Shown here piece by piece: positions 13,116 to 35,150 of a DNA stretch of 46,561 nt. The translations under genes were made by a program, and so were the position numbers. The stretch covers positions 1 through 46,561 of the forward strand of contig JAFTHC010000132.1 of assembly GCA_017457625.1 (NCBI GenBank), in the 5' to 3' direction. The notes below the pieces were generated by a model, which was given only the letters and a program-made list of their open reading frames with translations, was not told the origin of the DNA and did no database searches. Each line of letters starts with the position of its first letter. Position 1 is the stretch's first letter. The stretch is from Kiritimatiellia bacterium. Its GTDB lineage: Bacteria > Verrucomicrobiota > Kiritimatiellia > RFP12 > UBA3636.

Positions 13116-13139
13116 TCCGGAACGCGCCGGAGCCGAAAC

Positions 13140-16593: not shown

Positions 16594-16622
16594 TTGAATC
16601 TACGCTGCAGCGATGGTACAAT
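16594..16622 (+). promoter_or_regulatory. sigma70-type promoter, leaderless configuration
   Basis: TTGAAT (16594-16599), 17 bp, TACAAT (16617-16622). The ATG at 16629 lies 6 nt after the -10. Confidence 0.65.
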
Positions 16623-16628
16623 GGCGGC

Positions 16629-17588: not shown

Positions 17589-17631
17589 CGGCCCCGCGCG
17601 CCGTGGCGAGGCTCCGCCACGGCGCGGGTGG

Positions 17632-17661
17632 TTGGACTTTCCGCTTCGGTTCTGGTAGCAT
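17632..17661 (+). promoter_or_regulatory. possible sigma70-type promoter for the ART-like/NADAR pair
   Basis: TTGGAC (17632-17637), 18 bp, TAGCAT (17656-17661). It is preceded by a 12-bp GC hairpin (17597-17626). Confidence 0.35.
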
Positions 17662-17715
17662 TCCGTTCCGTTCTCCCCACCTGCGGAAACAGTCGCCATG
17701 TAAAAATCCTCCCTG

Positions 17716-18336: not shown

Positions 18337-18340
18337 CCCG

Positions 18341-18928: not shown

Positions 18929-19056
18929 GCGACATCGCCCGAGGTAGTTAAACGGTCTTTTCGGGCCGCGGGCGGGGCGGCCGCCGAAACTTTTTCCACG
19001 GTGCGATTGAAAAAAAGCTTGAATCCAGGTGGAAGCTGAGCATCATAGACGGTATC

Positions 19057-21521: not shown

Positions 21522-22475
21522 ATGAGCAACGACCTCGACGATCTCGTTCCCGGCGGGCGGACTTTCCCGCCGACCAGCCCGACGCTCCTGAAAGCCGCCG
21601 CCGCGCGGGACGACGGCGAGCCGCACGACGAAACGGCGGTCCGGACGTTCGTCGACGTCTACCGGGCCGCGCTCGACCATTTCGTCGAATTCCAGTCCGG
21701 ACAGGCGGAATGGTCCGACAAGGACGACATCGTCCTCGGCGTGTTGCGGGAAGTCCTCTCCGCCCTGCCGGGTTTCGAACGCCGCCGCGAAGGTTCGTTC
21801 CGGGCCTTTCTCAAGCGGGTTGCCGTCCACCGCCTCACGGACGCACGTCGGTCGGAAATGGCTCGGGAACGGCGCGCCCGCGAAGCGATGGACGCCCTTC
21901 CAAGTTTCGGGAACGCCGTCGCCGCCGAGGGAATCGCGGCGGCGAACGACGAGGAGAATCTCGGCTACGCGGCGCCGTCCGGTCCGTCCGCGTTCGTCTC
22001 CGGAAGCGGAACGGGCCTGGACGACGCATGGAATCTGCTCCTCTCGGCCGCGGCGCTCGCGCGGACGTTCCGCACCGCGAAGGGGTTGAGCGCGAAATCC
22101 GTCTCCATCTTCCTCCATCGGTTCCGCGGCGACGAACCGAAGGAGATCGCGGCGAAGTTCATGGTCGGGGTTTCGCAGGTTTCGAACGTCAGGGAACGGG
22201 TTTCCGCCGGCGCGAACGCAGCCCTGGCCGAAGCGGTCCGGAAGGCCGGCGGCTCGCCGCAGGACGACCCGGAAGGCGTCCTGCTTGCCCTCTTCGACGA
22301 CCGACCGCGGTTCCGCGACGCGCTCAAAGCCCGGCTCGAAACGTTCGACGACCCGGACGCCGTCCTCGCCTTCGTCGGAAAACTCGAGCGCGTCATGCAG
22401 GACCGCTGGGGCGCGACGCACCTCGGCTCCACCAAGCTGGCCGACCTGACGACCCCCGGAGAAACCGCACCATGA
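21522..22475 (+). CDS. ECF-like sigma-70 family factor with long sigma2-sigma4 linker and C-terminal extension
   Basis: Sigma2-like FRAFLKRVAVHRLTDARR and sigma4-like EPKEIAAKFMVGVSQVSNVRERV. It is the in-frame tail of ORF 20775..22475. Confidence 0.6.
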   Translation: MSNDLDDLVPGGRTFPPTSPTLLKAAAARDDGEPHDETAVRTFVDVYRAALDHFVEFQSGQAEWSDKDDIVLGVLREVLSALPGFERRREGSFRAFLKRVAVHRLTDARRSEMARERRAREAMDALPSFGNAVAAEGIAAANDEENLGYAAPSGPSAFVSGSGTGLDDAWNLLLSAAALARTFRTAKGLSAKSVSIFLHRFRGDEPKEIAAKFMVGVSQVSNVRERVSAGANAALAEAVRKAGGSPQDDPEGVLLALFDDRPRFRDALKARLETFDDPDAVLAFVGKLERVMQDRWGATHLGSTKLADLTTPGETAP

Positions 22476-22515
22476 ACGAACCCGCGCTTCCGCGCACCAC
22501 CGACCGCTGCCGGCC

Positions 22516-23523
22516 ATGACGGATGACGACATCCAGCAAGTTCTCGACCGTGGGACCGTCGGATCGGGTCCCGTCTACCGCATCGAGGAATGTCTCGGGC
22601 ACGGCGGCATGGGCGCCGTGTTCAAGGCCTACGAGAAGAGCATCGACGATCCGGTGGCCTTGAAGGTCGAGTTCCTGTCGGACGATCCGGACGAGCCCGA
22701 CTTCCGGTCGCCCGAAACGAAGGAAGAAGACCGGGAGAACGCCGTGGAACGCTTCCAGCGCGAGGTCATGCTCGCGTCGCGGCTTTCCAAGCGGAATCCG
22801 GCAATCGTGAGGGCGTCCCATTTCCAGATCGAACGCGGTCCGGACGGAAATCCCGTCCGGCTGCTCTACGAAATGGAGCAGTGCCTCATGATGCGGGAGG
22901 ACGCGCTGGGAGTCTGCCGGGCCTGGCGCGTGTACCCGCGGCCGGCCTGGTCCGGAAACTGGCCGAGGAGCGTGACGTTGCGGAACGTCATCCGGGAGGC
23001 GAACGCGTCCGGCGCCGGTTGTCTGCCGCAGGACGCGGTCGCCCGGATCGCCTTGACGCTCGTCGGGGCGCTCCGGACGGTGCACGACCGGGGCGTGGTC
23101 CACTTCGACGTGAAGCCGGAGAACGTCCTCGTCTGCAAGGGCGGCCGGTTGAAGCTGGCCGACTTCGGCCTCGCGAAACTGGCTTCCTGGGCGGCGGCCG
23201 AATCCACGACCGGCGGGACCCGTGGCTACATGGCGCCGGAGCAGTATTGGCCGGCCGCCAGGAAGGTCAAGGCCGGACCTCCGGCCGACTACTACGCGCT
23301 CGGCGTCGTCCTGAACGAGCTGCTCACGGGCCGGCGCATGGCCTGGAACACGACCGACGACGAGTGGCGGAATCCGTCCGATTCGGGAGACACCTTCCAT
23401 CCGGTCTGCCGGAACTGGGACGTCCTTCTCAAGGGCATGATGGAAAAAGACCCGCGGCGCCGGCTGGCCGACCCGGACCTGCTGCTCTTCGAATTCGGCG
23501 AAATCGCGAAAGGCCGGTGCTGA
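22516..23523 (+). CDS. Ser/Thr protein kinase (non-RD: HFD catalytic loop)
   Basis: GHGGMGAVFKA (G-loop), ALKV (VAIK-like), VVHFDVKPENVLV, LADFGLAK and GTRGYMAPE. Confidence 0.85.
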   Translation: MTDDDIQQVLDRGTVGSGPVYRIEECLGHGGMGAVFKAYEKSIDDPVALKVEFLSDDPDEPDFRSPETKEEDRENAVERFQREVMLASRLSKRNPAIVRASHFQIERGPDGNPVRLLYEMEQCLMMREDALGVCRAWRVYPRPAWSGNWPRSVTLRNVIREANASGAGCLPQDAVARIALTLVGALRTVHDRGVVHFDVKPENVLVCKGGRLKLADFGLAKLASWAAAESTTGGTRGYMAPEQYWPAARKVKAGPPADYYALGVVLNELLTGRRMAWNTTDDEWRNPSDSGDTFHPVCRNWDVLLKGMMEKDPRRRLADPDLLLFEFGEIAKGRC

Positions 23524-23524
23524 C

Positions 23525-24823
23525 ATGGCGGACACCTCGAACGAAGACGTCTGGCCCGTTTCCGCGGCCGACGCGGTCGCGCTCGGCAAGCGCCTCGAAG
23601 ACGCCGATCCCGCGGCGGCCTACGGACTCTACGCGGCCGCGGCGCGGCGCGGCGACGCGGAAGGCGCGTTCCTCGCGGGCAAGGACCGTTTCTACGGCAT
23701 CGCGCATCCGGTCGACGACGCCAAGTCCGAGGCGTTCCTGCGCATGGCCGCCGAGAACGCGTCCGCGCCGGATGCGGTCCGCGCCGACGCGTTCGACAGC
23801 CTGGGGCTGCTGTTCCTGCGGCGGAAGCAGACCGCCCGCGCCCGGAAGTATTTCACGCGGGCGTCGTCGTTCGGCTCGCTCGACTCGCTCGACAACCTCG
23901 GCAAAATGGCCCGGGACGCCGGCGACCCGGACAAGGCGCTCGGGTATTTCTCCCGCGCGGACAAGGACGCGCGCGAACGGGCCGCCGGCGCCTCGCCGGC
24001 CGAACGGGACCGGATCGACCTGGACGCCGCCTGGGCGCGGCTCCACCTGGCGTCCTTCTTGCCCTGGTGGCACGGCGATTCGGACTCTTCGGCGAAGGAA
24101 GCCCGCCGGCTGCTCGCCGACGTCGAACGGCTGCAGGACGTGTTCCTCTGGAAGGACATCGGCGACGCCTATCTGGACAGTGAATTCGAAGCGGCGGATC
24201 CGGACGCCGCCGAGACGTGGTACCGCCGGTCGGCCGAAGGCGGCTTCGCGGACGCCCAGGTCGCGCTCGCGCGGTTCCTTCTTTCCCGGAAGAAAACGCC
24301 GGAAGCCGCCGTCGAGGCGGTCGACTGGCTCGGCAAGGCCTGCGCGAAAGGCTCCTCCGAGGCGTTCCGCCTGCGCGCGGAATGCTACGCGCGGGGCGAC
24401 GGCGTGCCGCAGAACTGGTCGCGCGCGACGGTCGAATACCGCCTCGCGGCCGACTGCGCGGGCCCCGGACAGGACGACTGGATCGACGAAGCCTACCGCG
24501 ACGGCCGTTTCGGCTGGCGCCACGGCGAGGACGTCCTCGCGTGGATCCGCGCCCGCGCCGACTCCGGCGCCGTCTGGGCGCTGCGCCTATGCGTCGGGGA
24601 GACGATGCGGGAGGAAGACCCGGACGCGTTCTGGCGGTTCCTCGCCGCCGCCGCGGAGAAGGGCGTTCCGTCCGCCCAGTTCGAGCGGGCGCGCGAGCTC
24701 CTGTTCGCGTCGGACGCGCCCGCCGCCGCCGCCATGTTCCGCGCGTTCCTGGACAATCCGGACGACAAGGACGCGGAGACCGTCTCCCTCGCGAAGAAGT
24801 GGTTGGCCCACCTGGAGCGGTGA
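23525..24823 (+). CDS. Sel1-like/TPR repeat protein
   Basis: Repeated A-x-G-x6-LG/LA-x-Y/F-G-type units (GDAEGAFLAGKDRFYG, GSLDSLDNLGKMA, GFADAQVALARFLL, GSSEAFRLRAECYARGDGVPQNW). The ATG lies 1 nt after the kinase stop codon. Confidence 0.7.
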   Translation: MADTSNEDVWPVSAADAVALGKRLEDADPAAAYGLYAAAARRGDAEGAFLAGKDRFYGIAHPVDDAKSEAFLRMAAENASAPDAVRADAFDSLGLLFLRRKQTARARKYFTRASSFGSLDSLDNLGKMARDAGDPDKALGYFSRADKDARERAAGASPAERDRIDLDAAWARLHLASFLPWWHGDSDSSAKEARRLLADVERLQDVFLWKDIGDAYLDSEFEAADPDAAETWYRRSAEGGFADAQVALARFLLSRKKTPEAAVEAVDWLGKACAKGSSEAFRLRAECYARGDGVPQNWSRATVEYRLAADCAGPGQDDWIDEAYRDGRFGWRHGEDVLAWIRARADSGAVWALRLCVGETMREEDPDAFWRFLAAAAEKGVPSAQFERARELLFASDAPAAAAMFRAFLDNPDDKDAETVSLAKKWLAHLER

Positions 24824-24851
24824 CGCTTCGTCCCGGGCGGCGCAACGGCTC

Positions 24852-24888
24852 CGGCGCGGTCGCGGAAGCGGCCGCGCCGATTTTTTTT
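24852..24888 (+). terminator. intrinsic terminator
   Basis: CGGCGCGG (24852-24859), 12-nt loop, CCGCGCCG (24872-24879), A, then T8 (24881-24888). Confidence 0.7.
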
Positions 24889-24894
24889 CCGCGG

Positions 24895-24928
24895 CGGTGT
24901 GAAAACGCATGGAGAGAGTCCGCTTTCC
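24895..24928 (+). promoter_or_regulatory. bipartite motif CGGTGTGAA-N15-TCCGCTTTCC, copy 2
   Basis: See 20844-20876. It lies 21 nt upstream of the ATG at 24950. Confidence 0.4.
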
Positions 24929-24949
24929 GGAGTGAAAGGGATTCAATCC

Positions 24950-25573
24950 ATGCAAAACTCCGAAAAGAAATCCGCCGCGCTCCGCGGCACCTCCACGAAA
25001 GAATCCGCCCGCGAGGCGGACATCCTCCGGCTCGTTGCCGACAACCAGGGCCTCGTCCGCGCCGAGGCCGCCCGCGTCCTCGCGACGTGGGCTCCCGAAA
25101 ACGATGATGACGCCCGGGAGGAATGGTTCCGGGAACTGGTCCAGGCCGGCCAGCCGGGCCTCCGCCGCGCCGCGGAGAAATTCGACCCCGCCCGCGGGAC
25201 GGCGTTCTCCACGTATGCCGTGCCGTGGATTTTCAAGTTCGTCCACGAGGCCGCGGAGGAGCTCCGCGAGACCTACTGCCACGTCTCTTGCGACGCGGCG
25301 GCGGACGGCGCCGGCTCCGCGGAACTCGTCCCGGACGAGGACGCCGACGACCCCGCCGAGACCGTCGCGCGGGCGTCGGACTGCGCATGGGTCCGCGGGT
25401 GCCTCGCGGAACTCCCGGCCCGCGAGCGCCGCGTGCTCGAGCGCCGTTTCGGCATCGGGTCGCGTCCCGAGTCGACGTTTGCCGAAATCGCCGCGTCGGA
25501 GGGCGTCTCCGTCCAGTGCATCCACCGCGTCTACCAGCGCGCCCTGGCGCGGATGCGCCGGTCCGCCGCCTAG
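24950..25573 (+). CDS. sigma-70 family RNA polymerase sigma factor (small, group 3/4-like)
   Basis: Region 2 GLRRAAEKFDPARGTAFSTYAVPWIFKFV and region 4 ERRVLERRFGIG...TFAEIAASEGVSVQCIHRVYQRALARMR. The start was set at MQNSEKK after GAAAGGG. Confidence 0.8.
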   Translation: MQNSEKKSAALRGTSTKESAREADILRLVADNQGLVRAEAARVLATWAPENDDDAREEWFRELVQAGQPGLRRAAEKFDPARGTAFSTYAVPWIFKFVHEAAEELRETYCHVSCDAAADGAGSAELVPDEDADDPAETVARASDCAWVRGCLAELPARERRVLERRFGIGSRPESTFAEIAASEGVSVQCIHRVYQRALARMRRSAA

Positions 25574-25577
25574 CGCC

Positions 25578-25635
25578 CCGCGGCTCCGCGGGCGTCCGGC
25601 ACCCGCGGAGCCGCGGAACCGCGCGAGATTTTTTT
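25578..25635 (+). terminator. long GC hairpin plus T-tract (probable terminator)
   Basis: 15-bp stem CCGCGGCTCCGCGGG (25578-25592) pairs with CCCGCGGAGCCGCGG (25602-25616). T7 at 25629-25635. Confidence 0.55.
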
Positions 25636-25643
25636 CGGTGGTG

Positions 25644-25672
25644 GTGAATTCGCCGCCTTTGCCCGGTAGAAT
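25644..25672 (+). promoter_or_regulatory. sigma70-type promoter for the AAA+ operon (leader ~108 nt)
   Basis: GTGAAT (25644-25649), 17 bp, TAGAAT (25667-25672). Confidence 0.55.
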
Positions 25673-25690
25673 GGCCCCGCGCCCCGTCCC

Positions 25691-25765
25691 GACCGCCAGA
25701 CCGATCGACCATCCGACCGCCCGACCGATAGACCGATAGACCGATCGACCATCCGACCATCCGAC
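25691..25765 (+). repeat. 7-8-nt tandem array (CCGACCAT / CCGATAGA / CCGATCGA units) inside the 5' leader
   Basis: GACCGATCGACCATCCGACCGCCCGACCGATAGACCGATAGACCGATCGACCATCCGACCATCCGAC read directly. Related arrays lie at 31134-31160 and 35154-35192 (reverse complement). Confidence 0.8.
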
Positions 25766-25786
25766 TTCAAAATACAGACACACGCC

Positions 25787-28228
25787 ATGTACGACGCACT
25801 CAGAAAACTGACCGAAACCCCCTCGCACTACCTGCGCGAGAAGAAACTCGAATTCCTCCGCAACGCCGTCCGCTATCTCGACCGGGACATCCCGGACGAC
25901 GATTTCTTCCAGGACGTCGCCGACCACGTCGCCTCGAACGAGGAGGCCCGCCGCCTCTGCAGCGGGGCGTTCCTCGCCGACGGCATGGACGAACAGGGCC
26001 GCCCGAAAGCCGGCTCCCGTCCGCCCGCCCGGGAAGAACATCCTCCCCGCCGCCGCTTCCCGGTGCCGGACGAGGACATGGACCTCGACGCCATCTTCTG
26101 CGGCGAGGACGACGACGAGCTCGAGGAGGACGCGCCCCGCGGCGCCGACAAGCGCGACGCCGCCGCGAAGGAGGGCCCCTTCCGCCGCGGCCGGCCGATC
26201 GCGGCCGGTTTCCGCGACGTGTGGCGCTCCACCGACGGCCTGCGCGCGCTGCGCGGCTCCCTTGCGGACCATCTCGGCCGCCGGCTCGAAGCGATGCGCC
26301 TCGAACGTCCGCGCCGCGACCCCGTCAAGACCCGCGTGTCCGAACTCAAGAAGCTGCTGGGCCTCTCGGACGCCGAGACGGACCTGCTCGTGTTCCTGCA
26401 CCTGTTCTACTCGGACCGGTGCGACTGGTTCCGCGGCCTCGCCACGGAACCGTTCCCGAGCACCCGCATCAAGCCCGCGCTCCACAAGCTCTTCGCCATG
26501 GTGACGGGCTCGACCTCCACCGCCGTGGCCGACGCGCTTTCCGCGGACGGCCCGCTCGTGCGCTTCGGCGCCGTCTTCGAAGACGACTACGGCGTCGCCC
26601 GCTCCGTGACGCGCTACCTCACGGGCGTCGCGAAAGGCGACCTGCGCAGCTCGTTCTACGCGCCGCTCGAGGGCGAGACGCTCCCGTGGGAGTTCTTCCC
26701 GGAGGAGCTCCGCAAGCACGGCGACACCATCGCGGCGCTCGTCCGCGCCGACCGCGGCGGGCGCGGCCTCGACGTCCTGCTGCACGGCGCGGCGGGCGCG
26801 GGCAAGACCAGCTTCGCCCGGGCGCTCGCCGCGCGGCTCGGCATGCGCGCCGTCGGCATCGCCATGGACGGCGACGGCCCCGGCGCGACCGACCGCAAGG
26901 CGCGCCGCGACATCCGCGTGGGCGCCGGCGAGCAGACCGCGTTCCGCCTCGGCGCGCTCGCCGTGGCCGAGCGCGAATGCGACCCGGCGCGCGACGTCAT
27001 CGTCGTGGACGAGGCCGACATGCTGCTCGGCCGCGCCGGCGCGAACCGCCTCAACGACACGCTCGACCGCGGCCGCTGCGTCCGCATCTGGCTCGGCAAC
27101 CTCGACCCGGAGGCGGAGCTGCCCGAGTCCAACCTCCGCCGCTTCGACTACGCCGTCGGCTTCGAGCCGCTCGGTGCCCGCGAACGAGCCGCCATCTGGC
27201 GCAACTGCACCGGCAAGGCCGGCCTGGCGGACGTCTTCGCGGACGCCGACCTGGAGGACTTCGCGGAGCGCTTCCCGGTTTCCGCGGGCATCGTCGCCCG
27301 CGCGTGCGCCAACCTCGCCGCCACCGGCCTCGCCGCGCGCGAAGGGCGCGACGCGGCGAAGGCGTTCGCCGAACGGCTCCTCGAGAGCCACGCCAGGCTC
27401 CTCGGCGTCCGCTTCCGCGCCGCCGCCGAGCCCAAGCGCGTCTCCGCGGGCTACGTCCTGGACGGCCTCGACGTGAAGGGCGACGTGCCGCTGGCCGACG
27501 TCCTCGCCGCCGCCAGGGAGCACCTGCGCCGCCTCAAGGAAGGGGACGAAGGCGACGGCGCCGCGCTCCGCGACCCGCCGCGTCTCAACGTGCTCCTCTC
27601 CGGCCCCCCCGGCTGCGGCAAGACCGAGTTCGTGAAATGGCTCGGCGAGCAGCTCGGGCGCAAGGTCGTCGCCCTCGGCGCCAGCGACCTCAAGGACAAA
27701 TTCGTCGGCGAAACCGAGAAGCGCATCGCCCGCGCGTTCAAGGACGCCGAGCGCGACGGGGCCATTCTGTTCTTCGACGAAGTCGACTCGTTCCTGCGCT
27801 CCCGCGCGGGCGCGGCGCACTCCTGGGAGGTCTCGCAGACCAACGAACTGCTGGCGCGCCTCGAGGACTTCAAGGGGCTCTTCGTCGCGGCTACGAACTT
27901 TCCGTCTTCGCTCGACCCGGCCGTGCTGCGCCGCTTCACGTTCAAGCTCTCCTTCGGCTACCTCTCGGACGAGGGCAAGCGCGTCTTCTTCGAGCGCTAC
28001 TTCGGCGACCCGCTCACGGAGGCCGAAGCCGCGGAACTGCGCTCCATCCCGGACCTCTGCCCCGGCGACTTCCGCACCGTGCGCCAGCGCCTGGACTACC
28101 TGCCGGGCGGCCGCACCAACGCGCGCCGCCTCGCGGCGCTGCGCGAGGAGTCCGGGCGCAAGGCCGCCCTGCCGCCCGGCGAGAACTTCGAGCGCCCCGT
28201 CCGCGGGCGCCTCGGCTTCGGCGCGTAG
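25787..28228 (+). CDS. tandem AAA+ ATPase (classic AAA/CDC48-like second module)
   Basis: Module 1: LLHGAAGAGKTSFARAL and VIVVDEAD. Module 2: LLSGPPGCGKTEFV, ILFFDEVD and the second region of homology ATNFPSSLDPAVLRRF. Confidence 0.85.
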   Translation: MYDALRKLTETPSHYLREKKLEFLRNAVRYLDRDIPDDDFFQDVADHVASNEEARRLCSGAFLADGMDEQGRPKAGSRPPAREEHPPRRRFPVPDEDMDLDAIFCGEDDDELEEDAPRGADKRDAAAKEGPFRRGRPIAAGFRDVWRSTDGLRALRGSLADHLGRRLEAMRLERPRRDPVKTRVSELKKLLGLSDAETDLLVFLHLFYSDRCDWFRGLATEPFPSTRIKPALHKLFAMVTGSTSTAVADALSADGPLVRFGAVFEDDYGVARSVTRYLTGVAKGDLRSSFYAPLEGETLPWEFFPEELRKHGDTIAALVRADRGGRGLDVLLHGAAGAGKTSFARALAARLGMRAVGIAMDGDGPGATDRKARRDIRVGAGEQTAFRLGALAVAERECDPARDVIVVDEADMLLGRAGANRLNDTLDRGRCVRIWLGNLDPEAELPESNLRRFDYAVGFEPLGARERAAIWRNCTGKAGLADVFADADLEDFAERFPVSAGIVARACANLAATGLAAREGRDAAKAFAERLLESHARLLGVRFRAAAEPKRVSAGYVLDGLDVKGDVPLADVLAAAREHLRRLKEGDEGDGAALRDPPRLNVLLSGPPGCGKTEFVKWLGEQLGRKVVALGASDLKDKFVGETEKRIARAFKDAERDGAILFFDEVDSFLRSRAGAAHSWEVSQTNELLARLEDFKGLFVAATNFPSSLDPAVLRRFTFKLSFGYLSDEGKRVFFERYFGDPLTEAEAAELRSIPDLCPGDFRTVRQRLDYLPGGRTNARRLAALREESGRKAALPPGENFERPVRGRLGFGA

Positions 28229-28231
28229 GGG

Positions 28232-28260
28232 ATGAAACGAACGCCTCGCCCCGGTATACT
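28232..28260 (+). promoter_or_regulatory. sigma70-type promoter, leaderless configuration (GTG start)
   Basis: ATGAAA (28232-28237), 17 bp, TATACT (28255-28260). The GTG at 28267 lies 6 nt downstream. Confidence 0.5.
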
Positions 28261-28266
28261 TGCATC

Positions 28267-29526
28267 GTGACCGTCCTTCCCTTCCAGCCCGAACGCTTCC
28301 TCTACGCCGCGGCCGGCGACGTGCACGGCGACCTGCCGGCACTCGTCGCCGCGGTGGATGCCGTGCGCGCGACGGCCGCGGAGAGCGGGCGCGAGGCGCG
28401 CGTGTTCGTCCTCGGCGACGCGATCGACCGCGGCCCGGACTCCGCCGGCTGCGCCGCGTTCCTGATGCGGCTCGCCCGCGGGGAAGATCCGGCGCGGCGG
28501 GACGCGCGACTCGTCTTCGTGTGCGGCGACCACGACATCGCCCTCTCGTGGAACCCCGCCACGCGGACGTTTTCGTCGGTGGTCGATCCCGGCGACTGGG
28601 CGGAGGAGCTCAATGTGCTCCCGGAGGACCATCCCGACCGCGCCGTCGCGCGGACGTGGATCGAGTTCGTCCGCGAAGCGCCCGCCGCGGTTCTGCTCCG
28701 CGGGGAGACGGAGGCCGTGCTGCTCGCGCACGGAGCCGTTCCGCACGCGGATCTGCTGCCGCGCCTGAAGACCCTCGACGACCTCGGCTCGCCCGAATGC
28801 GACCGCGACTTCGCCTGGTGCCGCCTCGCCGCCGCGCCGCGCAAGATCCCCAACCGCGCCTCGCTCTTCTGCGACGTCGGGCTCGACGACCTCGCGGACT
28901 TCCTCGACCGGCTCGCGGAGCTCGCCGCCGGCGAGGCTACGGGAGAGGGCTCCGCCCTCCCCGAACCCCACCCGCCGCTGTTTCCGGAAGCACCGCAAGG
29001 GCCGCACGGCGCGGCTGCGCCCGCAGAGCCCCGCATTCGCTTCGCCCCGCATCGTGGGGAGGGGTTCGGGGAGGGGCGCAGCCCCTCGCCCGTCCGGTTG
29101 TTCGTCCACGGCCACGAGCACGCGGAGGCGGGGTGCGAGGCCGTGCCCGTGCGCGGCGGGCGCACCGCGTGGACCGTGACCACGTTCCGCGGGAGGGGCG
29201 TGTTCGGGGCGATCCGGCCGGCGGTGCTGCTTCTCGATCACGCAGAGACCGCAGAGATTGAATCTCACGCAGAGAGCGCAGAGGGCGCAGAGAGTGTTTC
29301 TCACGCAGAGATCGCAGAGGGCGCAGAGATTGAATCTCACGCAGAGATCGCAGAGGGCGCAGAGATTGAATCTCACGCAGAGAGCGCAGAGATCGCAGAG
29401 AGTGGATCCCTCGCCGGTTCCCGAGCAGCGGAGCCGCGAGACCCGGCCGATGCAGGATCGGCGCCCGCGCGGACGCGCGGCGCGGCGATCCTTGCGAAGC
29501 CGCTCTTCCTGGAGGACCTGGCGTGA
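28267..29526 (+). CDS. calcineurin-like metallophosphoesterase / PPP-type protein phosphatase with acidic HAE(S/I)AEGAE repeat tail
   Basis: GDVHGD, GDAIDRGPDS, CGDHD, AHGAVPH and VHGHEH fit the metallophosphatase motif series. It is the in-frame tail of ORF 26221..29526. Confidence 0.7.
   Translation: MTVLPFQPERFLYAAAGDVHGDLPALVAAVDAVRATAAESGREARVFVLGDAIDRGPDSAGCAAFLMRLARGEDPARRDARLVFVCGDHDIALSWNPATRTFSSVVDPGDWAEELNVLPEDHPDRAVARTWIEFVREAPAAVLLRGETEAVLLAHGAVPHADLLPRLKTLDDLGSPECDRDFAWCRLAAAPRKIPNRASLFCDVGLDDLADFLDRLAELAAGEATGEGSALPEPHPPLFPEAPQGPHGAAAPAEPRIRFAPHRGEGFGEGRSPSPVRLFVHGHEHAEAGCEAVPVRGGRTAWTVTTFRGRGVFGAIRPAVLLLDHAETAEIESHAESAEGAESVSHAEIAEGAEIESHAEIAEGAEIESHAESAEIAESGSLAGSRAAEPRDPADAGSAPARTRGAAILAKPLFLEDLA
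29239..29402 (+). repeat. in-frame tandem repeat (36-nt units made of NNCGCAGAG 9-mers; perfect duplicate 29302-29337 / 29338-29373)
   Basis: CACGCAGAGATCGCAGAGGGCGCAGAGATTGAATCT occurs twice, flanked by degenerate copies. It belongs to the same 9-mer family as 1-140 (reverse complement) and 5603-5620. Confidence 0.85.
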
Positions 29527-30209
29527 GCGCCTCGCGCACCTACGTGGCGGAGTGCGAGCTCTGCCGCACGAAGTTCGAGACCGACCCGGGCGAATGCCCG
29601 GTGTGCGGGGGCGCGTCGATGCGCGCGATCCGCGAAGCGGTCGCCGCAGCGGAGGACATCCCCGTACCGACGGGGCGGACGAAGCCGCCGCGGGCGTTGC
29701 GGCGGAAGACTCCCCCAGCCTCGCTTCGCTCGGCAGCCCCCTCAGGGAGGGGGCCGGCTTCGCCGAAGGCGCCTGCGGCGCCGTTCGCGGGTTTCAGGCC
29801 GGCCTCGCCGCCGCGCGGGCCGGACGGGCGTTTCCTGCCGCGCAAGAAGGTGGGTACGTTGCCCCGCGGACGCGGCGCGCCGGTCGTTCCTCGTCCCGCG
29901 TCCCACCCCGCGCGGGGCCTGTCGCCGGCGGCGAAGGCGGCCGAGGCGCTGCGGCGCGCCGCGGGCGGCGGCGCCTATCGCATCGGCTCGCGCGGCGGAA
30001 CGACGACCATCCACATCGACGTGCGCGACGCGGCGGCGCGGCTCCGCGAGGCGCGCCGGGCGGCCGCCGACAGCGGCCGGGAATACCGGCGGGCGCGCGC
30101 CGCGCTGCGCGAAGCCCGTGCCGCGCTCTCCGCCACGCGCAACCGCGGCAACGCCGTCGAACGCGCCCTCCGCCGCATCGCCGCCTGGCTCGAAGACCTG
30201 TTCGTCTGA
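29523..30209 (+). CDS. zinc-ribbon protein with disordered Pro/Arg-rich centre and C-terminal coiled-coil-like segment
   Basis: CELCRTKFETDPGECPVCGG (CxxC-x10-CxxC). The GTG start overlaps the upstream stop codon (GTGA, 29523-29526). Confidence 0.5.
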   Translation: MSASRTYVAECELCRTKFETDPGECPVCGGASMRAIREAVAAAEDIPVPTGRTKPPRALRRKTPPASLRSAAPSGRGPASPKAPAAPFAGFRPASPPRGPDGRFLPRKKVGTLPRGRGAPVVPRPASHPARGLSPAAKAAEALRRAAGGGAYRIGSRGGTTTIHIDVRDAAARLREARRAAADSGREYRRARAALREARAALSATRNRGNAVERALRRIAAWLEDLFV

Positions 30210-30283
30210 TCCGAAGACGACGAGACGACGCGAATGACGTGCGACCGTCCGACCATTTGAACAAACAACCCAAGGAACCCCAG

Positions 30284-31018
30284 ATGGACAACGAAACCAA
30301 ACCCAAGACGAAGGGTGTCGCCGACATTCTCTTCCTGCTGGACGCCACCGGCTCCATGCAGTCCAACATCGACGCCGTGAAGGACAACATCGGCGCCTTC
30401 CTCGACTCGCTCGCGACGCCCGTCGGCTTCAACGCCGCCGCGCCGCTCAAGGACTGGCGGGCCGCCGTCTACGCCTACCGCGACGCGGGGTGCGACGGCG
30501 ACGCGTGGTTCGTCCCGAACCCGTTCACGCGCGACCCGGCGCAGCTGCGCGCGCAGCTCGACCGCATCGTCGCGGACGGTGGCGGCGACGAGCCCGAGTC
30601 GCTCCTCGACGCGCTGCACGCCGTCGCGAACCTCCCCGCCGCGCCGAAGGGCGCGCAGGACGAGGACCCGCACGCGTGGCGCTACCGCTCCGAGGCGGCG
30701 CGCGTGGTCGTCGTGTTCACCGACGCCTCCTTCCACCCGACCTTCGCCGGCGACCCGTCGATGGGCCTGGCGGACGTCGCCAACGCCATCACCGAGGCGC
30801 GCATCCGCCTCTCGGTCTTCGCGCCGGCGATGGAGTGCTACGACGACCTCTCGCAGATCGACAAGTGCGAATACACGCCCGTCGCCGTCGAGCCCGGCGA
30901 GACGCCCGTCGCGGCGCTCGCGCGCTTCACCGGCGACCGCGCGCACTTCCGAAAGACGCTCGAGATGCTCGCCAAGTCCGTCTCGGCCTCCGCCGCCGCG
31001 GACGCTTTGGAAGTTTGA
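30284..31018 (+). CDS. TerY-like von Willebrand factor A domain protein
   Basis: ILFLLDATGSM (MIDAS DxSxS), GGGDEPES and VVVVFTDAS. AAGGAA lies before the ATG at 30284. It is the in-frame tail of ORF 29258..31018. Confidence 0.75.
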   Translation: MDNETKPKTKGVADILFLLDATGSMQSNIDAVKDNIGAFLDSLATPVGFNAAAPLKDWRAAVYAYRDAGCDGDAWFVPNPFTRDPAQLRAQLDRIVADGGGDEPESLLDALHAVANLPAAPKGAQDEDPHAWRYRSEAARVVVVFTDASFHPTFAGDPSMGLADVANAITEARIRLSVFAPAMECYDDLSQIDKCEYTPVAVEPGETPVAALARFTGDRAHFRKTLEMLAKSVSASAAADALEV

Positions 31019-31133
31019 AGCCGTCCCCGCGACCGGCGCGCTGCGCCGGACGCGGGGCGGCTTCGGCGCTTCGTCGGCGGGCGCGCGGTGCGCGCCCGCG
31101 TCGAAGCCGGACAATCGCAATCCACTCGCGTGA

Positions 31134-31160
31134 TCGTCCGACCATTCGACCATTCGACCA
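31134..31160 (+). repeat. 8-nt tandem array CGACCATT x3
   Basis: CGTCCGACCATTCGACCATTCGACCAT read directly. Confidence 0.75.
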
Positions 31161-31257
31161 TAAGACTGGTCGGCGAAGCCGACCCACCCAACCTTTTACA
31201 TCGATTTTGCGCGCGGGGCGGCGGCCCCGGCCGCCGCTCCGCGCGCTCAAAACCGCC

Positions 31258-32592
31258 ATGCCAATCGTTCCCTCTTCCGGCGACCGCGTCGCCAGCCCCC
31301 GCCATCGCTACACGCTGCTGAAGCTCCTCAACAAGGGCGCGTGCGCCAACGCGTTCTCCGTCACCGACGAAAACGGCGAGAAGGTCTTCCTGAAGGCCTA
31401 CACCTCGCCCACGACCCTGAAGCCGTGGTATGACGACTACCTGCGCTACGAGATCGAGCTGAACCGCCGCCTCGGCGCCGAGCCCGTCCTCGCGCAGCAG
31501 TCCGTGCGCGCGACGGACGTCTTCAGCGCGACGTTCGAGCACGAGGGGCGGCCGACGCGCAACCCGAACGTCTTCCAGGTCTTCCCGTTCGTGTCCGGGA
31601 ACCGGAACCTCGGCGACCTCATCGACGCCGGCGACGGCGGCCGCGCGCTGAGCGGCCCCGAGCGGCTCATGGTCGCGACGATCTTCCTCGCGGCGCTCGC
31701 GCGCCTGCACGAAGCGAAAATCGTCCACGCCGACCTCAAGCCCGAGAACGTGCAGATGGTGCGCCTCGGCTCCGGGAAGGAACTGCTGTTCCGCCCGCTG
31801 CTCGTCGACCTGGACTTCTCCGTCCTCGCCGACCGGCGCGCGCCGTGGCACGGCGACCCCTCCGTGGGCTACGTCGGGACGCCGGGATGGTTCTCGCCGG
31901 AGCACCTGCGCGGCGACGTGCCGACGACGGCGTCCGACGCCTTCACTGCCTCGCTCATCCTGTGGAAGCTCCTCGCCGGCGCGCATCCGTTCGCGTCCGC
32001 GCTCGGCGACGACGCCGAGCCAGGCGACTACCGCGAACGCGTCCTCGCGGGGCGGCACGACTTCGGACCCGACGCGCCTCGGCTTCTCCCCGGCGTCGCC
32101 GCGCCCGACCTCGCGCGCCTGCTCCTCCGCGCCCTCTCGCCCGACCCCGCGCGCCGTCCCTCCGTCGCCGAACTCCACGCCGCGGCGGTCGCGGCGCGGC
32201 GCGGCGGCGGCGGCGCCGCCGCGGGCGCGCCGTCCGCGGAACCGAAGGCGACTCCGCCCCTCGTATCTCGTATCTCGTCTCGCGTCACGTCCCTTTCCCG
32301 CCTGGTCCTCACGGGCCCGAACGGCGTCTTCTCGACCGGCGGGCGGTTCGCGGTGACGCGCGCGACGCTGCGCCGCGTCGTGGGCGACGACGCGCGCTAC
32401 GCGGGCGACGCGCCGCAGTTTCTGTTGGAGCGCGGCGACGGGGACGCATGGCTGGCGCTGCCGCCGCCAACCGCGCCGCGCAACCCGACCTACCGAAACG
32501 GCGCGCCGCTCGCGTCGCCGGCGGTTCTCGCCTCCGGCGACGTGCTCTCCATCGGCCCCGTCAAGGCCGCCTGCACCGTCTCGTTCGCGTAG
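31258..32592 (+). CDS. Ser/Thr kinase (non-RD: HAD loop, DFS in place of DFG) fused to a C-terminal FHA-like domain
   Basis: KIVHADLKPENVQM, LVDLDFS and GTPGWFSPEH. The C-terminus NPTYRNGAPL...LASGDVLSIG resembles the FHA core. It is the in-frame tail of ORF 30490..32592. Confidence 0.75.
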   Translation: MPIVPSSGDRVASPRHRYTLLKLLNKGACANAFSVTDENGEKVFLKAYTSPTTLKPWYDDYLRYEIELNRRLGAEPVLAQQSVRATDVFSATFEHEGRPTRNPNVFQVFPFVSGNRNLGDLIDAGDGGRALSGPERLMVATIFLAALARLHEAKIVHADLKPENVQMVRLGSGKELLFRPLLVDLDFSVLADRRAPWHGDPSVGYVGTPGWFSPEHLRGDVPTTASDAFTASLILWKLLAGAHPFASALGDDAEPGDYRERVLAGRHDFGPDAPRLLPGVAAPDLARLLLRALSPDPARRPSVAELHAAAVAARRGGGGAAAGAPSAEPKATPPLVSRISSRVTSLSRLVLTGPNGVFSTGGRFAVTRATLRRVVGDDARYAGDAPQFLLERGDGDAWLALPPPTAPRNPTYRNGAPLASPAVLASGDVLSIGPVKAACTVSFA

Positions 32593-32600
32593 CCGGGGCG

Positions 32601-35150
32601 CTACGCCCAGCGGACGTAGCCGGGCATCGAGGTGCGCCAGGGGTCGGAGGCCGGGACGACGCGCGCCGAGAAGGCGAACGAGCCGGTCTTGTCGCACGGA
32701 ACCTGGAGCTTGTAGAGGTAGAGCGAGGCGCTGAGCTTCTTCGAGGGCTCCATCGGCAGCGCCGTGCCGCCGTGTACCGCGCCCGAGGCGTCGGGGCGCC
32801 CGAGGAAGAGCTCGACGCGCACGTCCGCCGGGTCGACGCCGTCGAGGCGCACCTTCGCGGTGACCTCGAACGAGTCGCCCACGACGCTGCGCACGAGGTC
32901 GCGGTCGGTCTCGACCGACTCGACGCGGATGCCGTCCCATTTGGCGTAGAGCGCGTTGCGGCGCGCGATGTCCTGGCGCACGGCGGCGAAGTCCTCCGCC
33001 GAGAGCGCGGCGTAGTTGCCCAGCGCGGGCTCGTAGGAGCCGGCGAAGTAGTCCGAGACCATGCGCGTGGAGGAGAAGCGCGAGATCGACATCTTGATCG
33101 ACTCCTTCATCATGCCGATCCAGCGCAGCGGCAGCTCGCCGTGCGGGCGGTCGTAGAAGGCCGGGACGATCTCGCTCTCCAGCAGGTTGTAGAGCGACTG
33201 CGCGTCGTTCCAGTTCTGCTGCCCCTCGTCGGCGAACTCCTGCCCGTCGCCGATCTGCCAGCCGCACTTCTCGCTGTAGCCCTCGGGCCACCAGCCGTCG
33301 AGCGTGGAGACGTGGATCGCGCCGTTCACGCACGCCTTCATGCCGGACGTGCCGGAGGCCTCCATCGGGCGGCGCGGGGTGTTGAGCCACACGTCGACGC
33401 CGCGCACCATGCGGCGCGCGATGTGCATGTTGTAGTTCTCGAGGAAGACGATGCGGCCCTTCACGGCGGGGTCCTTCGAGAACTCGACGATGCGGCGGAT
33501 GAGCTCCTTGCCGCCGTTGTCGGCGGGGTGCGCCTTTCCGGCGAAGACGATCTGGACGGGGTGCGCGTCGTCGCACAGCAGGCGCTTGAGGCGGTCGGGG
33601 TCGGAGAGCAGCAGCGTCGCGCGCTTGTAGGTCGCGAAGCGGCGGGCGAAGCCGATCGTGAGCGCGTCCTTGTCCAGCACGTTGCGGCACGCCTCGACCT
33701 CGGCGGGCGAGGCGTGGCGGCGGCGGGCGGAGCGCTCGAGGATCTCGCGCGCGGAGCGGACGAGGTGCGCGCGCGCGGACTCGTGGACGCGCCAGAGCTC
33801 CTCGTCGGCGATGTGGTCGACGCGGGCGGCCTGCGACTCGGAGATCGGGGCCTTGTCCCAGTCCGGCCCGAGGACCGTGGCGTAGAGCTGCTCGTTGTCC
33901 GTGCTGATCCAGGTCGGGACGTGGATGCCGTTGGTGACGTGGCCGATCGGGACTTCGTCCACCGGGAAGTCCGGCCAGAGGTGGTGCCACATGTCGCGCT
34001 CGACGACGCCGTGCAGCTTCGCGACGCCGTTGCAGAAGAGCGAGCAGTTCAGGCCGAGGATCGTCATCGAGAGCTCGTTGGACGCGTCGCCGGGCGCGCG
34101 GCCGAGGCCCTTCACCGTCTCGGCCGGGAGGCCGCCGTCGCGCTCGAAGGCCTCCAGCTGCGGCCACAGGAGCCCCAGGTCGAAGGTCTCGTTGCCGGCG
34201 GGGACCGGCGTGTGCGTCGTGAAGACCGAGGTGCGGCGCACGAACGCCTTGGCCTCGTCGAACGTGAGGCCGTGGCGCTTCATCGTGTTGGCGATGCGCT
34301 CCGGCCCGAGGAACGCGGCGTGGCCCTCGTTCATGTGCGAGCAGGCGACCTCGAAGCCGAGCGCCTCGACGGCGCGCAGGCCGCCGACGCCCAGCAGCGC
34401 CTCCTGGCGCAGGCGGTTGCGCTTGTCGCCGCCGTAGAGCTGGCCGGTGACGCCGCGCAGCTCGGGCGGGTTCTCGGGGATGTTGGTGTCGAGCAGGATC
34501 AGCGGGATGCGGCCCACGTCGAGCTTCCAGGCGGTGAAGCGCAGCGGGCCCTCGGCGAGCGGAACCTCCAGCAGCAGTGGCTGGCCGTCCTCGCGCAGGC
34601 AGCGCGAGATCGGGAGGCGGTGCACGTCGTTCTCCGGGTAGCCCTCGACCTGCCAGCCGGTGGCGTTGATCTCCTGCTCGAAGTAGCCCTCGCGGTAGAA
34701 CAGGCCGATGCCGACGAGCGGGATGTCCAGGTCCGAGGCGCTCTTGAGGTGGTCGCCGGCGAGGATGCCGAGGCCGCCGGAGTAGATGTGCACGGACTCG
34801 TGCAGGCCGAACTCCATCGAGAAGTAGGCGATCACGCGGCGGTGCGTCTCGGAGGGGTCCTTCCAGTGCTTCGAGGTCTGGACCTCCTTTTCGAACTGCG
34901 CCTCCACGGACCGCATGTGGGCGAGGAAGGAGGGGTCGGCGGCGAGCTCCTCGAGGCGCTCCTGCCCGACATGGGAGAGCAGGCGCACCGGATTGAACTC
35001 CAGCTCGCGGAAGAGCGTGGGGGAGACGCGGCGGAAGAGCGCGGCGGCGTCCGCGTTCCAGCACCACCAGACGTTGTTGGCGAGGCGGGTGAGGAACGAA
35101 AGGTTCTCGGGGACCTTGGGGGCGACGGTGTAGGTGCGGAAGGTAGGCAT
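32601..35150 (-). CDS. glgP: alpha-glucan (glycogen/maltodextrin) phosphorylase, GT35
   Basis: 849-aa ORF. EASGTSGMK pyridoxal-phosphate lysine motif, plus IAYFSMEFG and GGLGILAGDHLKSASD. Confidence 0.9.
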   Translation of the reverse strand: MPTFRTYTVAPKVPENLSFLTRLANNVWWCWNADAAALFRRVSPTLFRELEFNPVRLLSHVGQERLEELAADPSFLAHMRSVEAQFEKEVQTSKHWKDPSETHRRVIAYFSMEFGLHESVHIYSGGLGILAGDHLKSASDLDIPLVGIGLFYREGYFEQEINATGWQVEGYPENDVHRLPISRCLREDGQPLLLEVPLAEGPLRFTAWKLDVGRIPLILLDTNIPENPPELRGVTGQLYGGDKRNRLRQEALLGVGGLRAVEALGFEVACSHMNEGHAAFLGPERIANTMKRHGLTFDEAKAFVRRTSVFTTHTPVPAGNETFDLGLLWPQLEAFERDGGLPAETVKGLGRAPGDASNELSMTILGLNCSLFCNGVAKLHGVVERDMWHHLWPDFPVDEVPIGHVTNGIHVPTWISTDNEQLYATVLGPDWDKAPISESQAARVDHIADEELWRVHESARAHLVRSAREILERSARRRHASPAEVEACRNVLDKDALTIGFARRFATYKRATLLLSDPDRLKRLLCDDAHPVQIVFAGKAHPADNGGKELIRRIVEFSKDPAVKGRIVFLENYNMHIARRMVRGVDVWLNTPRRPMEASGTSGMKACVNGAIHVSTLDGWWPEGYSEKCGWQIGDGQEFADEGQQNWNDAQSLYNLLESEIVPAFYDRPHGELPLRWIGMMKESIKMSISRFSSTRMVSDYFAGSYEPALGNYAALSAEDFAAVRQDIARRNALYAKWDGIRVESVETDRDLVRSVVGDSFEVTAKVRLDGVDPADVRVELFLGRPDASGAVHGGTALPMEPSKKLSASLYLYKLQVPCDKTGSFAFSARVVPASDPWRTSMPGYVRWA

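Follow-up and report, generated by a model that had tools for sequence, protein, structure and literature searches.

Described systems with comparable domains

TerY-P systems center on a triad of a vWA protein, a PP2C phosphatase and a kinase that is reported to be active against T7-like phages (PMC7699616, PMC11090510). The kinases of these systems are fused to Zn ribbons, β-rich domains or transmembrane (TM) helices (PMC7159879, PMC11090510), and vWA–kinase–phosphatase triads of this type count among the validated anti-phage systems. Here, we analyze a 46,561-nucleotide stretch of DNA from a Kiritimatiellia bacterium (contig JAFTHC010000132.1; hereinafter the window, meaning this stretch at its full length), in which the original prediction had recognized a variant TerY-P-like triad within one co-directional unit of five genes, namely those for a tandem AAA+ ATPase, a calcineurin-like metallophosphatase, a Zn-ribbon protein, a vWA protein and a Ser/Thr kinase fused to an FHA-like domain. 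Synteny with related loci instead splits this unit into a sigma-70→AAA+ pair on one side and the phosphatase, Zn-ribbon, vWA and kinase–FHA genes on the other. We propose, with a probability of roughly 60%, that the region comprises two adjacent and independent modules, a sigma-70/AAA+ module and a self-contained four-gene Ser/Thr phospho-switch.

Two further sets of described systems draw on similar parts. In Sulfolobus, ArnA (a Zn finger–FHA protein), ArnB (a vWA protein), the ArnC kinase and PP2A constitute a network in which phosphorylation controls the FHA–vWA assembly and a PPP-family phosphatase dissolves the complex (PMC7472852, PMC6509490). The Esr systems of actinobacterial threat sensing combine a vWA protein, a kinase–phosphatase pair and an FHA output (PMC13622651). 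For both Esr and the MoxR–vWA systems, a role in conflict or threat sensing has been proposed (PMC13622651, PMC7159879).

A four-gene cassette shared by distant bacteria

At a G+C content of about 70%, the window yields noisy raw lists of open reading frames (ORFs), and support for its genes was drawn from the G+C content at third codon positions (GC3), frame plots and Pfam domain searches. By these measures, all five ORFs of the predicted unit are real genes at the boundaries initially assigned to them. Four of them, all on the forward strand, make up the cassette: a PPP-like (calcineurin-like) metallophosphatase of 419 amino acids (28267–29526; GC3 0.84; Pfam Metallophos), a Zn-ribbon adaptor protein of 228 amino acids with a CxxC...CxxC motif and a weak match to the DUF7129 ribbon (29523–30209; GC3 0.89), a stand-alone cytoplasmic vWA protein of 244 amino acids (30284–31018; GC3 0.96; Pfam VWA, VWA_2 and VWA_4) and a Ser/Thr kinase fused to a divergent FHA domain (31258–32592; GC3 0.93; Pkinase, 2e-17). 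In the public annotation of the source contig (ENA ERZ28655124, a metagenome assembly labeled XIEF21-1), the phosphatase is missed and a reverse-strand ORF is called in its place, a choice probably explained by the tandem-repeat region of the phosphatase gene. This is a 36-bp in-frame repeat on the forward strand (29241–29408), found with Tandem Repeats Finder (period 36, 4.7 copies, 89% matches, score 259), which encodes the 12-residue unit SHAEIAEGAEIE in the C-terminal tail of the protein. The number of copies varies among close relatives, from about 2.5 units in one locus (L098; loci of relatives compared here are numbered L001–L103) to none in another (L099).

Relatives of the cassette were sought with a vWA profile in about 185,000 species genomes, one per species, with the best 80 loci being kept; at least 239 vWA relatives were confirmed by tblastn among the 600 pattern matches listed. 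Loci were taken as informative if the vWA relative had at least 40% identity and was followed by at least 4.5 kb of downstream sequence. In all 37 such genome loci, tblastn with the window proteins places both a kinase (33–49% identity) and a phosphatase (about 25–40%) beside the vWA gene. The order vWA→kinase→phosphatase is kept throughout the genome loci, and metagenomic contexts show a matching arrangement. The expectation that these three genes would be syntenic elsewhere is thereby borne out. Profile searches show the FHA domain to be fused to the kinase in 45/45 loci, while a motif scan detects the Zn-ribbon protein after the phosphatase, or fused to it, in about 40 of 44. The latter had been regarded as an addition to the triad; its distribution marks it rather as a near-universal fourth component, which in Gemmatimonadota is even fused to the phosphatase.

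The grammar of the cassette can be summarized as one to three vWA copies, a kinase–FHA protein, optional Zn-ribbon–FHA proteins, a PPP-like phosphatase and a Zn-ribbon protein whose tail varies. The order is rotated in the window lineage to phosphatase, Zn-ribbon protein, vWA and kinase–FHA. This rotated order is kept in L098, where the vWA, kinase and Zn-ribbon proteins are respectively 96%, 95% and 86% identical to those of the window. The optional Zn-ribbon–FHA proteins, of about 130 amino acids, are found at L007, L024, L029, L033, L036, L039, L041, L044 and L053; in L029 there are three, each directly upstream of a vWA paralogue. Paralogue expansions mark some other loci as well, such as L007 and L030.

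Relatives of the vWA protein are widespread, with more than 1,800 in a large protein collection and 230 cluster representatives at E ≤ 1e-30 among 1.84 billion. The loci come from Rhizobium, Microvirga, Roseomonas, Sphingomonas, Burkholderiales and Polyangiaceae, as well as from Gemmatimonadota, Longimicrobium, Acidobacteria, Planctomycetes, Verrucomicrobia, Kiritimatiellia, Bacteroidetes, Spirochaetales and others. The distribution over these phyla, at least 10 in number, is patchy, and vWA identities across phyla are 50–59%, a combination of sporadic presence and high identity that implies horizontal transfer. The genes flanking the cassette also differ between lineages: glycogen phosphorylase in the window, Lar_N in L004–L006 (vWA and kinase 85–86% identical to those of the window) and an apparent aminotransferase, judged by its N-terminal sequence, downstream in L098, where radical-SAM/SPASM and Sel1 genes precede the cassette. 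Judging from synteny and sequence conservation, the phosphatase, Zn-ribbon, vWA and kinase–FHA genes thus form a conserved and horizontally mobile cassette with a predicted signaling role.

The same cassette is also found in a decayed state. In L100 (5235–6583) and L101, an intact phosphatase is followed by residues 1–50 of the Zn-ribbon protein, which run directly into the C-terminal half of the FHA domain of the kinase. This junction points to a deletion that removed the vWA gene along with the remainder of the Zn-ribbon gene and the greater part of the kinase gene. We considered whether this might be a natural Zn-ribbon–FHA fusion and rejected it as such, the product being a deletion derivative.

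With regard to mobile elements, a scan of viral contigs (IMG/VR) with the vWA profile returned just 2 distant matches, indicating that the cassette is not phage-borne. Among 72,556 plasmids (PLSDB), tblastn with the window vWA protein matched megaplasmids of Rhizobium and Microvirga. In one Rhizobium plasmid record (CP050552), the genes are fragmented and annotated as hypothetical. In the metagenomic loci L001/L002 (JGI 3300031998), a cassette with two vWA genes and a Zn-ribbon–FHA gene lies among many small ORFs devoid of Pfam matches, a setting that looks like that of a phage or an island. A search of the literature, in which subscription journals were mostly outside coverage, returned no description of a cassette of vWA, kinase–FHA, metallophosphatase and Zn-ribbon genes.

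The neighboring AAA+ ATPase and its sigma factor partner

The AAA+ ATPase of the predicted unit (25787–28228, forward strand; 813 amino acids; GC3 0.94; Pfam AAA, 1e-35) is a neighbor of the cassette and not one of its components. It has two P-loop modules (residues about 306–430 and 597–740), each with intact Walker A and Walker B motifs. Its best PDB matches are NVL, AFG2 and p97, making it a type II ATPase of the CDC48/p97-like kind, whose D2 is a classical AAA domain. The preceding N-terminal domain of about 310 residues is modeled as all-α (predicted local distance difference test score, pLDDT, 79), and a Foldseek search of the PDB with this model returned no significant match, the best being a MarR-like winged helix at E = 3 and a probability of 0.4. 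Upstream of this gene lies a sigma-70 family gene (24899–25573, forward strand; Pfam Sigma70_r2 and r4), its partner in what we consider a separate module.

Orthologues of the AAA+ protein (38–92% identity) were located in seven other contexts, at identities of 91, 85, 69, 68, 64, 63 and 38%, and tblastn detects no phosphatase, vWA or kinase gene of the cassette near them in any of the seven. The 91% orthologue (L094) lies between an RtcR gene and a gene on the opposite strand, the 85% one (L091) between glycosyltransferase and DUF3465 genes, and one of 64% (L087) among unannotated genes. In L092, L088/L089 and L093, the gene directly upstream of the orthologue (63–69%) codes for a sigma-70 factor homologous to that of the window (31–36% identity). 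The most distant homologue (38%; L090, Termitidicoccus) lies without a sigma partner between a WYL regulator and McrBC.

The converse comparison gives the same picture. A metagenome scan with the phosphatase recovered the close cassette relatives L098, L099 and L103, and the AAA+ gene is absent beside all three, including L098 with its 96% identical vWA protein. In L099, whose phosphatase is 88% identical, there is no AAA+ gene within 10 kb. In L103 (79%), the phosphatase gene directly abuts a gene for a PfkB kinase–nucleoside deoxyribosyltransferase (PfkB-NDT) fusion, the counterpart of which in the window is at 19057–20778. Given this abutment, the window segment at 20.8–28.2 kb, with its sigma-like gene, kinase, Sel1 protein, sigma gene and AAA+ gene, reads as an insertion. 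Further, the AAA+ gene adjoins the cassette in 0/37 informative genome loci, the only sign of it nearby being a weak match to D2 alone, about 5 kb downstream in L057.

These observations bear directly on the five-gene arrangement of the original prediction, in which the tandem AAA+ protein would be the motor of a single TerY-P-like system. In its favor, all five genes are co-directional, and only 38 bp, in which no terminator was found, separate the AAA+ stop codon from the phosphatase start. Partnerships of AAA+ and vWA proteins also have precedents in the MoxR–vWA systems (PMC7159879) and in some CoCoNuT loci, where TerY-like vWA genes flank a SpoVK/CDC48-like tandem AAA+ gene (PMC11090510). 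Yet the window AAA+ protein is CDC48-like rather than MoxR-like, its orthologues at 38–91% identity occur in seven contexts without the cassette, and neither the cassettes of L098, L099 and L103 nor any of the 37 informative loci has an adjoining AAA+ gene. Moreover, the 38-bp gap itself contains a promoter-like site (28232–28260, forward strand; ATGAAA-17-TATACT), so termed by consensus match alone. With 9/12 positions matched, it is the sole sigma-70-like match in 24500–33000, where shuffled sequences lead one to expect 0.2. A strong terminator-like hairpin (24852–24879) sets the sigma gene apart from the preceding Sel1 gene, and together this hairpin and the promoter-like site fit a division into two modules. 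The five-gene model is already contradicted by synteny, as far as comparative sequence data go, and we consider it very improbable.

The sigma-70→AAA+ pair recurs in at least three contexts besides the window, and a LlaJI-type restriction system is found nearby in both L093 and the window. Below threshold, the window sigma factor also matches MzaA, which is the sigma factor in the anti-phage system MZA. The best PADLOC match of the AAA+ protein is IetA (5e-26), and its NCBIfam score for IteA is 82 bits against a cut-off of 510. It further differs from the IetAS system in its tandem architecture, its family-specific N-terminal domain, its sigma partner and the absence of an adjacent IetS protease gene. 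The sigma/AAA+ pair may be an accessory or defense module of its own.

Predicted activities of the cassette proteins

The vWA protein shows an invariant set of residues across its family, namely D20, G23, S24, the stretch GGGDEPE at 99–105 and D147. As predicted, the metal ion-dependent adhesion site (MIDAS) is intact; it takes the integrin-β form, D20-x-T22-x-S24, D102-E-P-E105 and D147. We take the D-E-P-E motif to be the counterpart of the D-A-P-E of integrin β (β3 sequence), with its ligands for the MIDAS and an adjacent metal site. A profile search of PDB sequences yields only weak matches to collagen and integrin chains, and a fold search was therefore needed to reveal this likeness. With the AlphaFold2 model (pLDDT 81), the top Foldseek matches are integrin β-subunit I-like domains at E-values of 4e-11 and below, ahead of α-I or TerY-type vWA domains. 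The metal site is thus, by the alignment and the model, predicted to be intact and of the integrin-β type. After the vWA fold, the model has only a C-terminal helix.

The kinase protein combines a Hanks-type kinase domain (residues about 18–307) with the C-terminal FHA domain (nucleotides about 32287–32568). The previously noted non-RD catalytic loop (HAD) and the replacement of DFG by DFS are both present and conserved through the whole kinase family. The family-wide motifs comprise the β3 lysine (VFxK), the αC glutamate, H-A-D-L-K-P-x-N, D-(M/L)-D-F-S and SPE, with Lys46, H-A-D159, N164, D186-F-S and SPE being the conserved positions in window numbering; the glycine loop is degenerate (GxxAxxY). 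Judging from their conserved residues, the enzymes of the cassette and the vWA protein look active.

The FHA domain was assigned from sequence profiles. Alone, the window version falls below threshold against the Pfam FHA model (E = 0.045), while 27/28 homologous domains from related loci match PF00498, the best at 3e-7. In a PDB search with the family profile, every listed match (E up to 1) is an FHA-containing protein, including 1uht (1.3e-4), Ki-67, EssC/YukB, RNF8, Rv1747 and Rad53. Accordingly, the C-terminus described at the outset as FHA-like can now be called a true, albeit divergent, FHA domain. The gap between the vWA and kinase genes (31019–31257) is unusually long, with 239 bp as against 28 bp in the 86% identical relatives L004–L006. 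This GC-rich gap contains stretches that resemble inverted repeats, as well as a short direct repeat in three copies, CGACCATT (about 31139–31162).

The sole Pfam match of the phosphatase is Metallophos (PF00149; 35.3 bits against a cut-off of 21.5; 2e-8), with no match to PP2C. The family consensus comprises GDLHGD, GDxxD(R/D), GNHD, HGG, DFxW and RGHDH, and the metal-binding motifs are all conserved. In the window protein, these appear as GDVHG, GDAIDRG, GDHD (with D in place of N), HG(A), DFAWCR and GHEH. GDHD and the PPP-type GDAIDRG mark it as part of a minor clade, and the PPP signature set of GDxHG, GDxVDRG, GNH(E/D) and HGG is present in it with the GDHD and HGA variants. HGG and DFxW (D-x-x-W) are motifs characteristic of protein phosphatases of the PPP family. 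Among solved sequences, 2qjc, an ApaH-like PPP enzyme (E 0.011), comes nearest, followed by 5vjv (RLPH2), both being weak matches at E-values of 0.01–0.02. Thus, the earlier suggestion that a calcineurin-like enzyme occupies the position of PP2C in TerY-P agrees with the Pfam match, the motifs and these weak matches, all of which point to a PPP-type enzyme. We consider it the predicted eraser of the switch.

A different reading of the same enzyme would make it a nucleotide or second-messenger phosphodiesterase and the cassette one that signals via a small molecule. For calcineurin-superfamily phosphoesterases of conflict systems, the common prediction is that of a nucleotide phosphodiesterase (PMC7159879), most members of the present family have GDLFDDE rather than the GDxVDRG of PPP enzymes, and the nearest solved sequence, weak as the match is, is annotated as a putative diadenosine tetraphosphatase. 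Against this, the second-nearest solved sequence, RLPH2, is a PPP protein phosphatase, the gene takes the PP2C position at all loci, next to a kinase–FHA fusion, and the cassette encodes neither a cyclase nor a nucleotide-sensor domain. The family also keeps HGG, DFxW and RGH(D/E)H, which we assume to be PPP-typical, and the window clade has GDAIDRG. A phosphodiesterase is hence an improbable reading, and we retain that of a phospho-switch with a protein phosphatase.

The gene for the Zn-ribbon protein begins within a 4-bp GTGA overlap with the stop codon of the phosphatase gene, a feature noticed in the initial reading of the window that recurs in L098 and L100, and the two genes are, on this evidence, predicted to be translationally coupled. 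The window protein has a single N-terminal ribbon (CxxC...CxxC), a disordered linker rich in Pro, Ala and Arg and a C-terminal coiled-coil helix, which is conserved upstream of the vWA gene in L004–L006. Clustering of neighborhood ORFs in related loci recovers a protein of about 190 amino acids right after the phosphatase, with a double Zn ribbon (RCPNCGT..GECEACHE..CPxCGA) at the N-terminus, a disordered linker rich in Pro and a TM helix at the C-terminus. The fused versions in Gemmatimonadota (L033, L039, L041 and L055) carry the ribbon and TM helix on the phosphatase. The part following the ribbon is variable, being a TM helix only, a TM helix with an FGE-sulfatase domain (L050), Ig-like repeats (L052), TPRs (L045) or a coiled coil (L036), and the protein of L007 extends to 1,311 amino acids without a recognized domain.

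Comparison with TerY-P, Arn and Esr systems

In both TerY-P and the cassette, an operonic arrangement brings a stand-alone vWA protein together with a kinase and a phosphatase of the Ser/Thr type, and neither system includes a dedicated effector enzyme. The kinases of both are non-RD, with HSD in the TerY-P kinase of plasmid R478 and HAD in the cassette, and are 24% identical over the catalytic core. A Zn ribbon and a β-rich domain are also common to the two; however, TerY-P has them on the kinase, whereas in the cassette the ribbon is on a separate protein (or fused to the phosphatase) and the β-rich domain is the FHA. The differences extend to the phosphatase, which is PP2C in TerY-P as against the PPP-like/calcineurin-like enzyme of the cassette, and to the kinase fusions, which are to a Zn ribbon, an OB fold or a TM segment in TerY-P and to FHA in all 45 cassette loci. 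Additionally, the cassette has an extra fourth gene, that for the Zn-ribbon protein with or without a TM helix, and no link to ter genes or to CoCoNuT/McrBC.

The vWA protein had been described as TerY-sized. The ter cluster of plasmid R478 codes for TerY1, TerX, TerY2, TerY3, a PP2C phosphatase and a kinase, and hhalign with the cassette vWA profile gives TerY1 a probability of 64% over 110 columns, which reflects generic vWA likeness, and TerY3 one of 7%. The MIDAS of TerY1 is of the classical kind (DTSGSM...GTT...TDGS), whereas the cassette vWA has D-E-P-E at the position of the Thr. No TerY was hit in the tblastn search of the PLSDB plasmids with the window vWA protein at E ≤ 1e-3. The likeness to TerY is hence generic, with the fold being closer to integrin β. 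Of the proposed TerY-P-like triad, the syntenic association of a vWA protein, a phosphatase and a Ser/Thr kinase (37/37 loci) stands, while a TerY-type vWA and a PP2C phosphatase are both wanting, which places the cassette outside TerY-P. By analogy, it is best regarded as a TerY-P counterpart that would work in a like manner and not as a member of TerY-P. The cassette is an independent re-invention of TerY-P logic, with PPP in place of PP2C, an integrin-β-like vWA in place of TerY, an FHA domain on the kinase and a variable Zn-ribbon protein.

The Sulfolobus ArnA/ArnB/ArnC/ArnD/PP2A set and the cassette draw on a common domain alphabet of Zn finger, FHA, vWA, Hanks kinase and PPP-family phosphatase. 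The ArnA architecture, which joins the Zn finger and FHA, is matched by the Zn-ribbon–FHA proteins of sister loci, and their placement upstream of vWA genes in L029 resembles arnA–arnB. In the window, by contrast, the FHA domain belongs to the kinase, and the Zn ribbon to a separate protein. Only arnA and arnB are adjacent in Sulfolobus, while the cassette keeps all its parts together and is bacterial and horizontally mobile. ArnB also has a β-sandwich and helix-bundle extension, of which there is none in the predicted structure of the cassette vWA, and the vWA profile returns no sequence match to ArnB-type chains in the PDB.

With the Esr and MoxR–vWA ternary systems the cassette has in common a vWA protein, a kinase–phosphatase pair, an FHA output and a variable sensor (PMC13622651, PMC7159879). 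These systems, however, need a MoxR-type AAA+ protein and a β-propeller or VMAP sensor, whereas the cassette has no MoxR gene; the neighboring CDC48-like AAA+ protein is not of the MoxR type and is not syntenic with the cassette elsewhere.

Proposed working and biological role

We envisage that the kinase might write phosphothreonine on itself or on its partners, namely the vWA protein and the Zn-ribbon protein, in the latter case on the disordered linker. The kinase's own FHA domain, together with the Zn-ribbon–FHA proteins of sister loci, would read these marks and thereby promote assembly with the vWA protein, whose MIDAS and synergistic metal-binding site (SyMBS) could add a further contact, dependent on metal, to a ligand that is acidic or phosphorylated. 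The phosphatase would erase the marks and keep the system off, and the Zn-ribbon protein might serve as a variable input or anchor subunit. As the cassette encodes no separate effector enzyme, its output is likely to be the kinase or, in those other lineages where the Zn-ribbon protein is anchored in the membrane, the latter protein.

By analogy with TerY-P, we tentatively regard a role in conflict or defense as the most likely biological function, falling a little short of an even chance. We lean toward it because the cassette is patchy, mobile and, in the window, located in a defense island, and also because of its paralogue expansions, its decayed copy, its variable Zn-ribbon subunit and the differing flanks of near-identical cassettes. 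Non-defense stress or envelope signaling is a more doubtful assignment, though one still to be reckoned with.

One specific form of the latter would be an ordinary TM or stress-sensing Ser/Thr phospho-relay that regulates a host process encoded elsewhere, comparable to the control of motility by ArnA/ArnB or of type VI secretion by PpkA–PppA–Fha. The flanks in 38 loci being chiefly housekeeping genes, with no defense enrichment, would accord with this, as would the essential absence of the cassette from phage contigs and the resemblance of Zn-ribbon subunits with a TM helix and FGE-sulfatase, Ig-like or TPR modules to environmental sensors. The closest experimentally studied set of domains, ArnA/ArnB/ArnC/PP2A, is itself a gene-regulation network (PMC7472852). 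Nevertheless, no target gene or neighbor is conserved, the sporadic distribution and high cross-phylum identity imply horizontal transfer, near-identical cassettes (L098 at 95–96% and L004–L006 at 85–86% for vWA and kinase) lie at different genomic sites, and paralogue expansion combined with decay (L100/L101) is more typical of accessory conflict genes. We therefore consider such a relay rather unlikely.

Several observations weigh against the proposal of a self-contained phospho-switch acting in conflict. The cassette encodes no nuclease, protease or pore-forming effector. No PADLOC model matches its vWA, phosphatase and Zn-ribbon proteins, which had zero matches there even at E ≤ 10 and likewise zero in NCBIfam at E ≤ 0.001; the matches of the kinase and AAA+ proteins in these two collections are generic and far under the curated cut-offs. 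The FHA domain keeps the Arg/Lys and N-x-T-x-x-N-G but lacks the Ser of SxxH and has the His replaced by an invariant Gln, such that binding of phosphothreonine is not assured. Similarly, the second phosphatase motif of most family members, GDLFDDE, is without the PPP arginine, which makes a non-protein substrate conceivable. The short, terminator-free gap allows for possible co-transcription of the AAA+ and phosphatase genes in this strain. Finally, a census of 127 flanking proteins from 38 loci (Pfam and PADLOC) returned mostly housekeeping genes with no recurrent neighbor and only sporadic matches to defense genes or integrases, so that enrichment in defense islands is not seen outside the window lineage; with its crude gene calls (an ORF and GC3 heuristic), this census is a weak negative.

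Carrying the proposal of a phospho-switch in conflict further, the cassette might represent a family, so far undescribed, of prokaryotic sensors for immunity or conflict that stand alone, as a PPP-based equivalent of TerY-P spread by horizontal transfer through at least 10 phyla. Detection of the invader would fall to the vWA protein, with its integrin-β-like MIDAS/SyMBS, and to the diversifying Zn-ribbon subunit, and the non-RD kinase, freed from the phosphatase, would act as the effector, causing growth arrest or abortive infection through mass phosphorylation. We offer this as a speculative extension with the odds against it. If a role in defense or threat sensing were true, comparison with TerY-P would reveal which features are essential to such phospho-switches, and the cassette would add a bacterial case of an integrin-β-type metal site in cytoplasmic signaling. 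The cassette is not a categorically new system, but it is a good candidate for experimental testing. For annotation, the present analysis removes a false association with the AAA+ gene and exposes a phosphatase gene overlooked in the public call.

The surrounding genomic island

In the window, the cassette is located in an island at about 2.9–32.6 kb, which contains a low-GC LlaJI-type restriction–modification (RM) system, PARG, an ART-like gene, NADAR, PfkB-NDT and cassettes with sigma and kinase genes. A DUF2828/DUF7788 protein of 518 amino acids (2905–4461) marks the left edge. It is followed by a stretch at about 4.5–15.5 kb with 52–62% GC in a genome of 70% GC, in which about 5 kb of small ORFs without Pfam matches precede the RM genes (10282–15443) for a C5 cytosine methyltransferase, an AAA_5 (McrB-like) protein and an RE_LlaJI endonuclease. 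This low-GC LlaJI stretch was probably horizontally acquired.

Next comes a cluster of NAD/ADP-ribose-related genes (15906–20778), comprising PARG (15906–17588), an ART-PolyVal-like gene (17716–18336), NADAR (about 18341–18928, in the public gene call) and the PfkB kinase fused to a nucleoside 2-deoxyribosyltransferase-like domain (19057–20778). NADAR and PfkB-NDT recur in L092, at 87% identity. Beyond these lies a separate cassette (21522–24879) of a sigma-like protein, a canonical Ser/Thr kinase (22516–23523) and a Sel1/TPR protein (23525–24823), which ends in the terminator-like hairpin. Similar genes are found near the phosphatase–vWA–kinase cassette in its relatives, namely sigma-like and kinase genes in L099 and a Sel1 gene in L098.

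From 32.6 kb onward, the window contains core genes, including glycogen phosphorylase, ClpB, PpiC and CysS. Among them is a canonical FHA protein (39180–39848; Pfam FHA, 2.8e-15) that is unrelated to the divergent FHA family of the cassette; its gene adjoins CysS and that for a SNF2-family helicase of 1,126 amino acids (41761–45141).

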